Part shown: positions 5,567 to 29,090 of the stretch, in pieces | Layout: every line of letters begins with the position of its first letter | Numbering within the stretch: position 1 is the first letter of the stretch | Virus record (IMG/VR): IMGVR_UViG_2534681766_000005 | DNA from: a virus | Lineage: Duplodnaviria > Heunggongvirae > Uroviricota > Caudoviricetes | DNA length: 36,518 nt | Strand: one strand, 5' to 3' | Made by a program: the position numbers and the translations under genes | Notes under the pieces: model-generated | What the model was told of the DNA's origin: nothing | The model's database searches: none | Seen by the model: only the letters and a program-made list of their open reading frames with translations

Positions 5567-7331
<1,765 letters not shown>

Positions 7332-7338
7332 CGTTTAT

Positions 7339-7360
7339 GCCGGATGGTATGCCATCCGGC
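7339..7360. terminator. hairpin between convergent coaD and mutM (probable bidirectional terminator)
   Basis: gccggatgg-tatg-ccatccggc perfect 9-bp inverted repeat lying between coaD stop (7331) and mutM stop (7370). Confidence 0.55.
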
Positions 7361-7369
7361 GCGCATGAA

Positions 7370-8179
7370 TTACTTCTGGCACTGCCGACAATAAAACGTT
7401 GCCCGCTGCGCATGTTTAGTCGCCACAATCGGCGTACCGCACACCCGACACGGCTCGCCTTTTCGCCCGTAAACCTGCAATTCCTGCGCGAAATAGCCCG
7501 GTTTACCATCACTTTGCAGAAAATCTTTCAGCGTTGTACCACCCTGCTCAATCGAACGCAGCAACACCGCTTTAATCACCCGAGCTAACAATTCACACTC
7601 TGCCAGCGACAGTGATGACGCCAGCCGATCCGGATGGATCCCCGCCGCAAACAGTGATTCGCTGGCATAGATATTCCCTACCCCTACCACCAGCTTGTTA
7701 TCCATCAGCCACGGTTTAATCGCCGTTTTTTTCTTCGCGCACTTCTGATGCAGATACTCACCATTGAAATCGTCGCTGAGCGGCTCCGGTCCAAGATGGG
7801 CCAGCACATTATGCCCTTCCAGCTCTTTGGTCCACAGCCAGGCACCAAAGCGGCGCGGATCGGTGTAGCGCAGCACTTTACCGTTGCTCATCACCAAATC
7901 CACATGGTCATGCTTTTCAGGGGGAAGTTCTTCTGGAAGGATGCGCAGGCTGCCAGACATCCCCAAATGAATGATAATCCAGCCCTCAGGCAGCTCCAGC
8001 AGCAAATATTTAGCCCGCCGCTGCACGCTAAGCACTGGTTGGTCGCTTAAACGGTAGATCTCTTCTGAAACCGGCCAGCGCAAGCGTCCGTTGCGCACCA
8101 CTGCATGAAGAATGGTTGCACCAACGAGATGCGGTTCTATGCCGCGACGGCTGGTTTCAACTTCGGGTAATTCAGGCAT
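7370..8179 (-). CDS. mutM: formamidopyrimidine-DNA glycosylase MutM/Fpg
   Basis: Translation [20 protein letters not shown]... with C-terminal zinc finger [25 protein letters not shown]; 269 aa from the MPELPEV start. Confidence 0.95.
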
Positions 8180-23278: not shown

Positions 23279-25360
23279 ATGAAAGGTCGCCTGTTAGATG
23301 CTGTCCCACTCAGTTCCCTAACGGGCGTTGGCGCAGCACTTAGTAACAAACTGGCGAAAATCAACCTGCATACCGTGCAGGATCTACTCTTACACCTTCC
23401 CCTGCGCTACGAAGATCGCACCCATCTCTACCCCATCGGAGAACTACTGCCGGGCGTTTATGCCACGGTGGAAGGCGAAGTGCTGAACTGCAATATCTCC
23501 TTCGGCGGTCGGCGGATGATGACCTGCCAGATCAGCGACGGTTCCGGCATCCTCACCATGCGCTTTTTCAATTTCAGCGCGGCAATGAAAAATAGCCTGG
23601 CGACGGGCCGCCGTGTACTGGCTTATGGCGAAGCAAAGCGCGGTAAATATGGTGCGGAGATGATCCACCCGGAATACCGCGTGCAGGGCGATCTCAGCAC
23701 GCCAGAATTACAGGAAACGCTCACGCCGGTTTATCCAACAACGGAAGGCGTAAAGCAGGCCACGCTGCGTAAATTAACCGACCAGGCGCTGGATCTGCTC
23801 GACACCTGCGCCATTGAAGAACTCCTGCCGCCGGAACTGTCACAAGGAATGATGACGCTACCGGAAGCGTTGCGCACTTTGCACCGCCCGCCGCCGACGC
23901 TACAGCTTAGCGATCTGGAAACCGGGCAGCATCCGGCGCAACGTCGTCTGATTCTGGAAGAACTGCTGGCGCACAACCTCAGCATGTTAGCCTTACGTGC
24001 CGGAGCACAGCGTTTTCATGCCCAGCCGCTGAGCGCCAATGACGCGCTGAAAAATAAACTCCTCGCCGCCTTACCGTTCAAGCCAACGGGCGCACAGGCA
24101 CGCGTAGTGGCGGAGATCGAGCATGATATGGCGCTGGATGTTCCAATGATGCGCCTGGTGCAGGGCGATGTAGGTTCCGGTAAAACACTGGTCGCCGCCC
24201 TCGCCGCGCTGCGTGCGATTGCCCACGGCAAACAGGTGGCCCTGATGGCACCAACCGAATTACTCGCCGAGCAGCACGCCAATAACTTCCGCAACTGGTT
24301 TGCACCGCTCGGTATCGAAGTGGGCTGGCTCGCCGGTAAGCAGAAAGGTAAAGCGCGACTGGCACAGCAGGAAGCCATCGCCAGCGGTCAGGTGCAGATG
24401 ATTGTCGGTACACACGCCATCTTCCAGGAACAGGTGCAGTTTAACGGTCTGGCGCTGGTGATTATCGACGAACAGCATCGTTTTGGCGTGCATCAGCGTC
24501 TGGCATTGTGGGAGAAAGGCCAGCAGCAGGGCTTCCATCCGCATCAGTTGATCATGACCGCCACGCCGATCCCCCGCACGCTGGCAATGACGGCGTATGC
24601 CGATCTCGATACCTCGGTGATAGATGAGCTGCCGCCAGGCCGCACGCCAGTGACTACGGTCGCTATTCCTGATCCCCGCCGTACCGACATCATTGACCGC
24701 GTGCGCCACGCCTGCATGACTGAAGGTCGTCAGGCGTACTGGGTTTGTACGTTGATTGAAGAGTCAGAGTTACTGGAAGCGCAGGCGGCGGAAGCTACCT
24801 GGGAAGAGTTGAAACTGGCGCTACCAGAATTGAATGTTGGCCTGGTACACGGGCGGATGAAACCAGCCGAGAAACAGGCGGTGATGGCGTCGTTTAAACA
24901 AGGTGAGCTACAACTGCTGGTTGCCACTACCGTTATTGAAGTCGGCGTTGATGTGCCTAACGCCAGTCTGATGATTATCGAAAACCCTGAGCGTCTGGGT
25001 CTAGCGCAGTTACACCAGCTGCGCGGGCGCGTAGGTCGTGGCGCGGTGGCTTCTCACTGCGTGCTGCTCTACAAAACGCCGCTCTCCAAAACGGCGCAAA
25101 TTCGCCTGCAAGTGCTGCGCGACAGTAACGACGGTTTTGTGATTGCGCAAAAAGATCTGGAGATTCGCGGCCCTGGCGAATTGTTAGGCACGCGTCAGAC
25201 GGGTAATGCTGAATTTAAAGTGGCGGATTTACTGCGCGATCAGGCGATGATCCCGGAAGTTCAGCGCCTGGCGCGACATATTCACGAACGTTACCCACAA
25301 CAAGCAAAAGCCCTGATAGAACGCTGGATGCCGGAGACGGAACGTTACTCCAACGCATGA
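23279..25360 (+). CDS. recG: ATP-dependent DNA helicase RecG
   Basis: From ATG 23279: MKGRLLDAVPLSSLTGVGAALSNKLAKINLHTVQDLL...; Walker A GDVGSGKT, DEQH box, helicase C motifs; 693 aa. Confidence 0.95.
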   Translation: MKGRLLDAVPLSSLTGVGAALSNKLAKINLHTVQDLLLHLPLRYEDRTHLYPIGELLPGVYATVEGEVLNCNISFGGRRMMTCQISDGSGILTMRFFNFSAAMKNSLATGRRVLAYGEAKRGKYGAEMIHPEYRVQGDLSTPELQETLTPVYPTTEGVKQATLRKLTDQALDLLDTCAIEELLPPELSQGMMTLPEALRTLHRPPPTLQLSDLETGQHPAQRRLILEELLAHNLSMLALRAGAQRFHAQPLSANDALKNKLLAALPFKPTGAQARVVAEIEHDMALDVPMMRLVQGDVGSGKTLVAALAALRAIAHGKQVALMAPTELLAEQHANNFRNWFAPLGIEVGWLAGKQKGKARLAQQEAIASGQVQMIVGTHAIFQEQVQFNGLALVIIDEQHRFGVHQRLALWEKGQQQGFHPHQLIMTATPIPRTLAMTAYADLDTSVIDELPPGRTPVTTVAIPDPRRTDIIDRVRHACMTEGRQAYWVCTLIEESELLEAQAAEATWEELKLALPELNVGLVHGRMKPAEKQAVMASFKQGELQLLVATTVIEVGVDVPNASLMIIENPERLGLAQLHQLRGRVGRGAVASHCVLLYKTPLSKTAQIRLQVLRDSNDGFVIAQKDLEIRGPGELLGTRQTGNAEFKVADLLRDQAMIPEVQRLARHIHERYPQQAKALIERWMPETERYSNA

Positions 25361-26211
25361 CCAGACTCATCACAAGACAAGTCACGCAGTAAATCTTCAA
25401 TCTGGATAGTGAGGATATCCATTGCCTCATACGCATCCTGTGCAATTCGCGCCGCCATTGCGCCTTCCGGTTCACCACGCAGAATTTCAGCCGCTGCCTG
25501 TACGCCAGCCACAATCATTTCAGGTGTTAACATTTGGCGAAGAAAAGCGCGATTATCAGAGGACCAGCCATCTTTATGGCCTAATGGATGCCCCCAGCCT
25601 ATCCATTCTTGCGACCATAACGGATTGGCTTCTATGGGATAAATTAGATGCGCGGCATACTGAATAGCACACACCGCTTTTCCTGGCGTATCCAGCGCCC
25701 ACCAGCGCGACCAGAGAGAACGAATTAACGGCGCGGCCCCACCCAGAGTATTGAACACCGCCAGCCAGCAAAGAACGTTATTGAAACCACGCTCGTTATC
25801 CATACGCTGCAACGCGGTGTCCAGTAAAAATTGCCGTACCTGCTGGCGTTGGGAAGCATTCATCATCTCCTGCCAGAGATAGGGCCGACACAATGCCTTC
25901 ATTAAGGATTCTTCGAAGTGATCACCATAACCGCCAGCTAAAACGGTTTCATGCCATTGCGCCAGGCAGAGCGGAAACAGATAGCGAAACAACTCTATTT
26001 GCATCGGTTCGTTATAAACGAGATTGAGTACATAGTAAGCACTCAAATCCCATTCGCTGATCTGCTGCCACTCTTTAGCCGCCAGCGCCTTGAGTTCGGC
26101 ATCTGCGTAATCAAATTCCGTTTCCCATACACAGAGCACTGGCGGCTCATCACCAAAAATATGGCGACAGTGTTCACGTAGCGTTTCCGGTTCCTTCCGA
26201 CGCTTTTTCAT
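25345..26211 (-). CDS. hypothetical protein, 288 aa, Trp-rich, no recognised domain
   Basis: Long ORF with ATG at 26209-26211, 2 nt after the gltS stop (26214-26216) on the same strand; 3' end overlaps recG stop by 16 bp; no TM segments evident. Confidence 0.55.
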   Translation of the reverse strand: MKKRRKEPETLREHCRHIFGDEPPVLCVWETEFDYADAELKALAAKEWQQISEWDLSAYYVLNLVYNEPMQIELFRYLFPLCLAQWHETVLAGGYGDHFEESLMKALCRPYLWQEMMNASQRQQVRQFLLDTALQRMDNERGFNNVLCWLAVFNTLGGAAPLIRSLWSRWWALDTPGKAVCAIQYAAHLIYPIEANPLWSQEWIGWGHPLGHKDGWSSDNRAFLRQMLTPEMIVAGVQAAAEILRGEPEGAMAARIAQDAYEAMDILTIQIEDLLRDLSCDESGHALE

Positions 26212-26213
26212 TT

Positions 26214-27419
26214 TTAACCGGCAAAAATCGGCAACATTAAATACAGCTTAATCACCAGCGCATTGACGATATCGATAAAGAACGCACCGACCATCGGCAC
26301 CACCAAAAACGCCATGTGCGACGGGCCAAAGCGTTCAGTGATCGCCTGCATGTTGGCGATTGCCGTTGGCGTTGCACCGAGGCCAAAACCACAGTGACCC
26401 GCAGCCAGCACTGCCGCATCGTAGTTTTTGCCCATCATGCGCCAGGTAACGAAGATGGCATACAACGCCATGAAGATGGTCTGTACCACCAGAATCGCCA
26501 GCATCGGCAGCGCCAGCGAAGCCAGCTCCCACAGTTTCAGCCCCATCAGCGCCATCGCCAGGAACAACGACAGGCTTACGTTACCCAGCACGGATACCGC
26601 ACGCTCAAAGACGCGGTAAAAGCCCATCATTGACAGACCGTTGCTCAGAATCACGCCAACAAACAGGACACAGACGAAGGTCGGCAGTTCAAAAGCAGTG
26701 CCAGCCAAAAGTTGCGCAACAATTTTCCCCACCGTCAGGCAGATAGCAATCAGCGCGATAGTTTCAATCAGCACCAGCGAGGTGATCATGCGGCCCACAT
26801 CCGGCTTTTCAAACGCCGTCGGGACTTCCTGGTCATCCGGAATACCGTTCGGCGTGGTGGAGTGTTTCACCAGATAGCGCGCCACCGGACCGCCAATCAA
26901 GCCGCCCAGCACCAGACCGAACGTTGCACAGGCCATCGCCACTTCCGTCGCATTGGTGAAGCCATAACGTTCAATGAACAATTTACTCCACGCAGCGCCC
27001 GTACCGTGACCGCCGGAAAGCGTAATAGAACCGGCCAACAGCCCCATCAGCGGATCAAGCCCTAACAGGCTAGCCATACCAATGCCAATGGCATTTTGCA
27101 TCACCAACAGACCAACAACCACAATCAAGAAGATGCCAACCACACGCCCACCGGCACGCAAACTGGCAATGTTGGCGTTCAGGCCAATGGTGGCGAAGAA
27201 AGCCAGCATTAACGGATCGCGCAGGGACATATCAAAGTTGACTTCCCAGCCCATGCTTTTTTTCAGTACTAGTAGCGCCAGCGCCACCAACAAACCACCC
27301 GCAACAGGTTCCGGTATGGTGTATTTCTTCAAAAAGGAGACGGAATGGACCAACTTACGCCCGAGCAGCAACGTCAGCGTTGCGGCAACAAGCGTTGCTA
27401 AAGTATCGAGATGAAACAT
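26214..27419 (-). CDS. gltS: sodium/glutamate symporter GltS
   Basis: 401-aa polytopic membrane ORF MFHLDTLATLVAATLTLLLGRKLVHSVSFLKKYTIPEPVAGG... Confidence 0.95.
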   Translation of the reverse strand: MFHLDTLATLVAATLTLLLGRKLVHSVSFLKKYTIPEPVAGGLLVALALLVLKKSMGWEVNFDMSLRDPLMLAFFATIGLNANIASLRAGGRVVGIFLIVVVGLLVMQNAIGIGMASLLGLDPLMGLLAGSITLSGGHGTGAAWSKLFIERYGFTNATEVAMACATFGLVLGGLIGGPVARYLVKHSTTPNGIPDDQEVPTAFEKPDVGRMITSLVLIETIALIAICLTVGKIVAQLLAGTAFELPTFVCVLFVGVILSNGLSMMGFYRVFERAVSVLGNVSLSLFLAMALMGLKLWELASLALPMLAILVVQTIFMALYAIFVTWRMMGKNYDAAVLAAGHCGFGLGATPTAIANMQAITERFGPSHMAFLVVPMVGAFFIDIVNALVIKLYLMLPIFAG

Positions 27420-27698: not shown

Positions 27699-29090
27699 AT
27701 GTCTGTTTCCCCCCTCGAGTCAGAAAATGCGCAACCGGTTGCGCAGACTCAAAACAGCGAACTGATTTACCGTCTTGAAGATCGTCCGCCGCTTCCTCAA
27801 ACCCTGTTTGCCGCCTGTCAGCATCTGCTGGCGATGTTCGTTGCGGTGATCACGCCAGCGCTATTAATCTGCCAGGCGCTGGGTTTACCGGCACAAGACA
27901 CGCAACACATTATTAGTATGTCGCTGTTTGCCTCCGGTGTGGCATCGATTATTCAAATTAAGGCCTGGGGTCCGGTTGGCTCCGGGCTGTTGTCTATTCA
28001 GGGCACCAGCTTCAACTTTGTTGCCCCGCTGATTATGGGCGGTACCGCGCTGAAAACCGGTGGTGCTGATGTTCCTACCATGATGGCGGCTTTGTTCGGC
28101 ACGTTGATGCTGGCAAGTTGCACCGAGATGGTGCTCTCCCGCGTTCTGCATCTGGCGCGCCGCATTATTACGCCGCTGGTTTCTGGCGTTGTGGTGATGA
28201 TTATCGGCCTGTCGCTAATTCAGGTTGGGTTAACGTCCATTGGCGGCGGTTACGCAGCCATGAGCGATAACACCTTCGGCGCACCGAAAAATCTGCTGCT
28301 GGCAGGCGTGGTCTTAGCCTTAATTATCCTGCTTAACCGTCAACGTAACCCTTACTTACGCGTGGCCTCACTGGTGATTGCGATGGCGGCCGGATATGCG
28401 CTGGCGTGGTTTATGGGCATGTTGCCAGAAAGCAACGAACCGATGACGCAAGAACTGATTATGGTGCCAACGCCGCTCTATTACGGTCTTGGCATTGAAT
28501 GGAGTCTGCTGCTGCCGCTGATGCTGGTCTTTATGATCACTTCGCTGGAAACCATTGGCGATATCACGGCGACCTCTGACGTTTCCGAACAGCCAGTGTC
28601 CGGTCCGCTGTACATGAAACGCCTGAAAGGCGGCGTGCTGGCAAACGGCCTGAACTCGTTTGTTTCGGCGGTGTTTAACACCTTCCCGAACTCCTGCTTC
28701 GGGCAAAACAACGGAGTGATCCAGTTGACTGGTGTTGCCAGCCGCTATGTCGGTTTTGTCGTCGCGCTGATGTTGATCGTGCTGGGTCTGTTCCCGGCAG
28801 TGAGCGGTTTTGTACAACACATTCCAGAACCGGTTCTGGGCGGCGCAACGCTTGTAATGTTTGGCCCCATCGCCGCCTCCGGTGTGCGTATCGTTTCTCG
28901 TGAGCCGCTGAACCGTCGGGCGATTCTGATTATCGCGCTGTCGCTGGCGGTTGGTCTGGGCGTGTCTCAGCAGCCGCTGATTTTGCAGTTTGCCCCTGAA
29001 TGGCTGAAAAACCTGCTCTCCTCCGGGATCGCCGCGGGCGGTATTACTGCCATCGTGCTGAATCTGATTTTCCCACCAGAAAAACAGTAA
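27699..29090 (+). CDS. xanP: xanthine permease (NCS2 family)
   Basis: [53 protein letters not shown]... 463 aa from this start; multi-TM nucleobase:cation symporter-2 type. Confidence 0.9.

Follow-up and report, generated by a model that had tools for sequence, protein, structure and literature searches.

The window analyzed here is the whole 36,518-nt stretch of DNA of IMG/VR virus record IMGVR_UViG_2534681766_000005 (Caudoviricetes), and it carries on its minus strand a 288-codon open reading frame (ORF) that lies between gltS, encoding the sodium/glutamate symporter, and the convergent gene recG. Our data show that this frame is under purifying selection, and we hold with high confidence that it is a real accessory gene, one that is dispensable (i.e., non-essential) and already known to databases as a hypothetical protein. 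Taken as a whole, we read its product as a soluble alpha-solenoid protein with a binding or adaptor role that would be co-expressed with gltS in Escherichia and Salmonella, and we assign this reading a probability of about 0.55.

Coding status and distribution in Enterobacteriaceae

The E. coli alleles of the ORF fall into two classes that are 21 nt apart, and these differences comprise 9-10 nonsynonymous and 10-11 synonymous changes together with a change of stop codon, giving a ratio of nonsynonymous to synonymous substitution rates (dN/dS) of 0.22-0.27. Two Superficieibacter species gave a dN/dS of 0.19 with dS unsaturated, and between genera, where dN is 0.2-0.5 and dS is saturated, protein identity still amounts to 47-71%. 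In an alignment of 18 homologues, 41 columns are invariant, many of them Trp. The largest frames on the opposite strand inside the ORF measure 77-81 aa, and an Rfam scan of the interval found no RNA family. The original prediction, which was made from the letters of the window, had envisaged as its refutation an interval that is the same in reference genomes and a frame lacking coding constraint; we found instead that dN/dS is below 1 and that the frame is conserved across genera. The ATG placed 2 nt after the gltS stop codon, the length of 288 codons, and the 16-bp overlap with recG that it described were all borne out by the sequence (Table 1). It had also regarded the composition as native, which holds for overall GC content (50.3% in the ORF, with a window mean of 50.5%) and not for GC at third codon positions (GC3), which is 0.50 versus 0.63-0.66 in recG and gltS (i.e., ~0.13-0.16 lower).

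The gene was found in 1,918 of 5,426 complete E. coli genomes (~35%), with an identity of at least 99% in 1,873 of them and 95-99% in 44, and the full-length frame is kept in 1,912. Carriers include BL21(DE3), NEBExpress, O157:H7, O45:H2, and O103 strains, and over 867 nt there are 0 differences between the window and BL21(DE3), O157:H7 PV15-279, or O45:H2 FWSEC0003. Comparing the recG-gltS interval across E. coli, as the original prediction had proposed, separated strains with the ORF interval from those with short spacers. Thus, of its suggestion that the gene might be unannotated or lineage-variable, the second part stands, since K-12 and UTI89 lack the ORF (as it had stated for the K-12 map, no gene lies between recG and gltS), whereas the first does not: the gene is labelled "hypothetical protein" (WP_000747329.1) by the annotation pipeline PGAP in all carrier records inspected, and UniRef names the exact protein sequence Ybl159. 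Ybl159/WP_000747329.1 of E. coli B and O157:H7 is therefore the same gene, with an identical sequence at the gltS-recG site. Literature searches using the name, the accessions, guessed O157 locus tags, and recG together with gltS found no function, family assignment, or paper attached to it. The ORF is accordingly one of the differences among laboratory strains (i.e., BL21 and other B strains, as well as O157:H7, have the gene, and K-12 does not), and its presence/absence polymorphism follows the usual pattern of accessory genes in E. coli and represents no new kind of system.

That the gene is dispensable, and at times decaying, follows from the frameshifted or truncated versions found in public assemblies. 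Among such variants (P0002, P0014, P0015, P0018, and P0022), one represents 269 member sequences and a second represents 73, and some lineages may have pseudogenised copies, unless these are assembly errors.

Syntenic homologues sharing 47-71% identity, positioned tail-to-tail with recG, were found in at least eight enterobacterial lineages, namely Salmonella enterica (some strains), Klebsiella sp. MISC125, Pseudocitrobacter, two Superficieibacter species, Intestinirhabdus, Enterobacter sp. kpr-6, and an enterobacterial locus designated L006. Across Enterobacteriaceae, recG is the single conserved neighbour; on the other side, gltS is tightly juxtaposed in Escherichia, Salmonella, and L006, and xanP or a glpX-like gene is found elsewhere. 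The ORF evolves far faster than its neighbours: between genera, RecG identity is 90-95% versus 47-71% for the ORF protein, and between E. coli and Salmonella, dN is 0.22 for the ORF and 0.04 for recG and gltS. The simplest reading of this synteny would be an early presence beside recG in Enterobacteriaceae, followed by repeated loss. Mobile-element origin was considered and rejected: searches of IMG/VR viral contigs and of phage records turned up no relatives, and the three hits in plasmid records are chromosomal DNA entered as plasmid, one of them containing recG and one measuring 4.8 Mb.

The flanks of the ORF also differ between carriers and non-carriers. When K-12 and BL21 are compared over 1,761 nt of recG, the initial 1,421 nt are identical and the last 340 nt contain 26 differences (7.6%), and gltS shows 5 differences in total, 3 of them within the last 40 nt; both strains nevertheless share the same RecG and the same GltS protein accessions. 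In the strain of the window, recG switches from K-12-like to ORF-type sequence ~90-150 nt before its stop. Given the recG 3' divergence and this switch point, the ORF-positive and ORF-negative intervals behave as diverged haplotypes, which homologous recombination may transfer from lineage to lineage at breakpoints that vary.

Within E. coli, the central and 3' portion of recG (positions 23893-25213, codons ~205-645) is a mosaic dense in single-nucleotide polymorphisms (SNPs). Pairwise differences amount to 1.8-5% gene-wide and up to 7-12% in the last 340 nt, and the same strain pairs differ by just 0-0.5% in the ORF, gltS, and xanP. These clustered SNP tracts suggest repeated recombination or long-lived haplotypes beside the indel. 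A recent sweep, considered because the ORF shows no variation among A, B1, and E strains, was rejected as unsupported, since gltS and xanP are nearly invariant too and the anomaly is the high diversity of recG.

Predicted fold, protein family, and junction with gltS

The ORF protein contains 13 Trp (4.5%) and has an isoelectric point of 4.9 and a grand average of hydropathicity of -0.24. Its highest 19-residue Kyte-Doolittle mean is 1.46, and therefore no transmembrane segment is expected, in keeping with the Trp-rich, apparently soluble protein that had been described from the sequence. Structure prediction, which had been proposed as a check, gave a confident all-helical AlphaFold model with 15 helices (predicted local distance difference test score, pLDDT, 88.9; predicted template modeling score, pTM, 0.88), in which the last block of residues has a mean pLDDT of 60. 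On this model, the protein is predicted to be a soluble all-alpha solenoid.

As the original prediction had anticipated, the protein belongs to no recognised family. It matched 0 Pfam families at E up to 1, and scans with PHROGs and PADLOC likewise returned 0 families; NCBIfam gave a lone meaningless match (E 0.15, 10.9 bits versus a cutoff of 817), and the best E-value of the family profile against PDB sequences was 1.2. Library scans of distant relatives were equally empty. HEAT/TOG alpha-solenoids (e.g., the TOG domains of Cep104, 5lph, and MEKK1, 6whb) count among the closest known systems. Pfam and the PDB-sequence profile search showed no sequence-profile similarity of the ORF protein to repeats of the HEAT, Arm, or TOG type.

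When 1.84 billion cluster representatives (clusters at 50% identity) were searched with a profile, the protein fell into a broad family of hypothetical proteins, comprising 444 clusters with an E-value of at most 1e-3, of which 113 reach 1e-30 or lower. Its members are nearly all single-domain proteins of ~300 aa from Proteobacteria, Planctomycetota, Acidobacteriota, Armatimonadota, and Cyanobacteria, with named hosts that include Leminorella, Cupriavidus, Zoogloeaceae, Planctomycetaceae, Bryobacteraceae, Chthonomonadaceae, and Microcoleus. Each member is annotated as hypothetical and has no Pfam domain: 85 aligned members gave no meaningful Pfam match, with no Pfam family in more than two of them, and the longest members (326-378 aa) have no extra Pfam domain and hence no domain fusions. 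Since the family is broad and no Pfam model, solved structure, or literature was found for it, a new domain-of-unknown-function entry could be proposed for it, and a function, if found, would annotate hundreds of hypothetical proteins together.

The positions conserved family-wide are mostly Trp, aromatic, or Leu, as in the motifs LQP(D/E)LFxYLFPxCL, WxxWW, and NPxF. Few polar residues are conserved (D34, Y60, Q71, C82, N196, and N220), and among the conserved positions there is no His, Lys, or Glu cluster and no obvious catalytic constellation. Most non-enteric members have a GGGGPY loop, which is degenerate and poorly modelled in the enteric subfamily.

Neighbours were clustered from 18 loci of species-representative genomes and 55 metagenome loci, and ~20 neighbours were analyzed with Pfam. 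No recurring neighbour was found among ~25 diverse non-enteric loci, and no toxin, transposase, or phage gene was found among the neighbours scanned. Those annotated by Pfam were a mixed set, namely GAPDH (in Leminorella), carboxymuconolactone decarboxylase, DinB, TIR-TonB_C, Macro-NADAR, NUDIX, RlaP, DUF6869, DUF6843, a glycosyltransferase, WD40 proteins, and planctomycete DUF1549/1553 proteins; one distant member is preceded by what we take, by eye, to be a probable glutamate dehydrogenase gene. The family is thus a stand-alone gene.

On the minus strand, the junction reads ...GCC GGT TAA aa ATG AAA AAG CGT..., and the same tight arrangement appears as TAA-g-ATG in Salmonella (a 1-nt gap) and as a TAATG overlap in L006. 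No Shine-Dalgarno sequence was evident by eye upstream of the ORF ATG, and a signal scan for promoter-like sites between gltS and the ORF, and for terminator-like sites where the two meet, was negative. The pair thus has the layout of coupled genes, with the stop and start codons a few nucleotides apart and no promoter or terminator found between them. In the ORF-bearing type, the same scan also detected nothing terminator-like where recG converges on the gltS-ORF unit, and a hairpin is present at the recG-gltS boundary of ORF-less strains. Given the tight junctions and the lack of promoter- or terminator-like sites, we infer co-transcription and termination-reinitiation: the ORF is most likely carried on the gltS mRNA, and its translational coupling to gltS is plausible.

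Proposed role and competing explanations

In the reading that we favor, the gene would have been in place early in Enterobacteriaceae and then lost repeatedly, and in E. coli the ORF-positive and ORF-negative haplotypes would persist, exchanged by homologous recombination through the ends of recG and gltS. In Escherichia, Salmonella, and the third enterobacterial lineage (L006), the gene would have no promoter of its own and would be translated from the gltS mRNA by termination-reinitiation. Its product would be a non-enzymatic binding or adaptor module, with a protein or a small ligand held on a conserved aromatic surface, putatively made up of W86, W149, W167, W170, W171, and W216 together with D34, Y60, Q71, N196, and N220.

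Several points weigh against this reading. "Binding protein" is a default reading of a solenoid fold, here a predicted one. Cys82 is conserved in 78% of the 85 aligned members, and this residue, the FPxCLxxWHE motif of the closer relatives, and the GGGGPY loop could mark an active or ligand site. Translation of the ORF and its coupling to gltS are read from the DNA sequence, and frameshifted or truncated E. coli versions (161-219 aa) recur in public assemblies. The polarity (i.e., ancestral presence and later loss) draws on synteny alone, and no statistically supported relic of the ORF was found in the short spacer of ORF-less strains. In addition, unusual diversity in the 3' part of recG (5-10% in the last 340 nt) is seen across all E. 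coli haplotypes, and not just between ORF-positive and ORF-negative ones, which makes the haplotype argument weaker than the contrast between K-12 and BL21 alone suggests.

An orphan immunity or antidote-like protein, binding a toxin from competitors or phages and kept without its cognate toxin, would fit the patchy presence/absence and dispensability of the gene, its evolution at 5-8 times the rate of the flanking genes while still under purifying selection, and the occurrence of some distant members beside the conflict-type genes TIR, Macro-NADAR, NUDIX, and RlaP. We consider such an identity unlikely, as no toxin gene is adjacent in ~25 diverse loci, where the large upstream proteins are without toxin domains, and there is no match to Pfam Imm or SUKH families, PADLOC, or PHROGs. 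Members are absent from phage, viral, and genuine plasmid sequences, the conflict-type neighbours (4 of ~40) could be due to chance, and the enteric copies lie between housekeeping genes rather than in an rhs, cdi, or type VI secretion system locus. The lack of an adjacent toxin and the housekeeping surroundings also distinguish the ORF from known all-alpha immunity and antidote proteins (e.g., Pfam Imm and Wolbachia CidA, 7fit). That the tail-to-tail linkage instead reflects a partner or modulator of RecG, or a factor in DNA repair or replication restart, is distinctly improbable. In at least eight enterobacterial lineages the gene has stayed beside the recG 3' end even though the other neighbour changes (gltS, xanP, or glpX-like), the convergent genes have no terminator-like site between them in ORF-bearing strains, and a Zoogloeaceae homologue is found downstream of ssb, two genes away. 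The AlkD DNA glycosylases are among the HEAT-like solenoids of bacteria, and AlkD/AlkC resemble the ORF protein in being small bacterial alpha-solenoids with aromatic-rich functional surfaces, the ORF lying beside the DNA-repair gene recG; when this likeness was tested, there was no Pfam DNA_alkylation match and no structural similarity to AlkD. Moreover, the gmk-rpoZ-spoT-trmH-recG block is itself conserved, so that shared ancestry alone predicts linkage to its end; convergent genes are not co-transcribed; no member outside Enterobacteriaceae is next to recG; and most E. coli strains, including K-12, have a functional RecG without the ORF.

The tight stop-start junction, seen in three lineages sharing just 48-71% identity, could also point to an accessory subunit or regulator of the GltS symporter made at a fixed ratio through translational coupling, as could the probable glutamate dehydrogenase gene (by eye) ahead of one distant member. 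This is very improbable, given that close homologues in Klebsiella sp., Superficieibacter, Pseudocitrobacter, Intestinirhabdus, and Enterobacter sp. have no adjacent gltS, that two-thirds of E. coli have gltS without the ORF (with BL21 and K-12 GltS being identical), and that family members in other phyla have unrelated neighbours. We give almost no credence to a spurious or decaying ORF without a protein product. Its frameshifted or truncated variants in assemblies, its low GC3 and lack of an evident Shine-Dalgarno sequence, and its BL21 locus tag (ECD_RS25820, from a later series, which may mean that it was added at re-annotation) could be taken that way, but dN/dS stays well under 1 on all scales examined, the full-length frame occurs in 1,912 genomes and many genera, the 444 homologous clusters are uniform in length, and the fold prediction is confident. 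Finally, a specific conserved role, either associated with RecG or the replication fork or as an antidote to a widespread toxin or phage effector, with ancient ORF-positive and ORF-negative haplotypes under balancing selection, appears to us quite unlikely.

Gene layout, ORF-less spacers, and further loci

Gene coordinates in the window were transferred from the RefSeq annotation of strain 503025, whose genome is identical, and they are compiled in Table 1 together with the two types of ORF-less spacer.

Table 1. Coordinates of the ORF, its neighbours, and the ORF-less spacers (positions refer to the window unless a locus is given)
Feature	Position	Strand	Remarks
288-aa accessory ORF	25345-26211	minus	867 nt, start ATG; ORF listing and identical coding sequence annotated in strain 503025, O157:H7, BL21(DE3), and O45:H2
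gltS stop TAA / 2-nt spacer / ORF ATG junction	26209-26216	minus	TAA 26214-26216, ATG 26209-26211
ORF/recG tail-to-tail 3' overlap, 16 nt	25345-25360	both	Encodes ORF C-terminal tail ...HALE*
gltS (sodium/glutamate symporter), upstream cistron	26214-27419	minus	RefSeq annotation of strain 503025, projected
recG, convergent neighbour	23279-25360	plus	RefSeq annotation of strain 503025, projected
xanP	27699-29090	plus	RefSeq annotation of strain 503025, projected
Last 340 nt of recG, left edge of divergent haplotype block tied to ORF presence/absence	25021-25360	plus	
K-12-derivative spacer, 168 bp	L002 1762-1929		Hairpin, REP-like sequence, inverted copy of hairpin
UTI89-type spacer, 33 bp	L003 1762-1794		Single GC-rich hairpin, T-tail on gltS strand

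The 16-nt overlap with recG is also present in Pseudocitrobacter (L015) and Intestinirhabdus (L018/L012), and the homologues of Salmonella, Klebsiella sp., and Superficieibacter end 1-2 nt short of recG. The sequence of the ...HALE* tail is set by the invariant RecG C-terminus, and the tail itself is of low confidence in the AlphaFold model. For these reasons, the overlap is probably incidental.

In the UTI89-type spacer, the hairpin reads GCGGCGG-TGAGAAGA-CCGCCGC. The K-12 spacer has a similar hairpin at its recG end, followed by ~110 nt of REP-like (repetitive extragenic palindromic) sequence and then a loop-inverted copy of the hairpin at its gltS end, an arrangement suggestive of an element that inserted into the terminator or duplicated it. 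The UTI89 spacer was also considered as the remnant of an ORF deletion, since its stretch ATGAAGCGGCGG resembled the ORF start; this was rejected, as the gapped alignment was no better than that of 159 of 500 shuffles. A partial ORF match in E. coli HH97 (NZ_CP116409.1) was likewise rejected as a remnant and represents a poly-G assembly artefact: the interval (L092 2425-2600) has long poly-G runs around a 51-nt ORF fragment, and recG is flagged as a pseudogene in this "complete" genome.

Two observations concern database records. The protein cluster at 90% identity that holds the ORF product has 9,280 members and is represented by GltS (401 aa); the ORF product and GltS, two unrelated proteins, were probably merged through fused or read-through gene calls over the 2-nt junction, which may explain why the full-length E. 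coli protein was missing as a cluster of its own in the first homology search. In addition, the record NZ_CP026085.1 (L095; 4.83 Mb), labelled E. coli DH5alpha, carries the ORF. The protein accessions of its trmH, recG, gltS, and xanP differ from those of K-12 or, for trmH, from those of the other strains inspected, and it is probably not a true K-12 derivative.

Individual loci outside the recG site were also inspected. In Leminorella grimontii (L020 4933-7835), the homologue is flanked on one side by a GAPDH gene, which Pfam confirmed, and on the other by what looks by eye like a yeaD-like aldose-1-epimerase gene. The GAPDH and yeaD genes are adjacent in E. coli, and Leminorella would be another case of the gene being lodged alone between housekeeping genes without a mobility gene. 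The family member of a Planctomycetales metagenome-assembled genome (MAG; L030 5959-8111) is split into two parts, 5959-6480 and 7677-8111; the insert between them contains a transposase-like ORF (6523-7353, by eye), the sole one of its kind seen, and this copy is thus disrupted by an insertion. The homologue in a Zoogloeaceae MAG (L022 1869-3241), which is the one located downstream of ssb, overlaps the end of an Asp_protease_2 (retropepsin-like aspartyl protease) gene by 4 nt, the only apparent coupling to a gene other than gltS.

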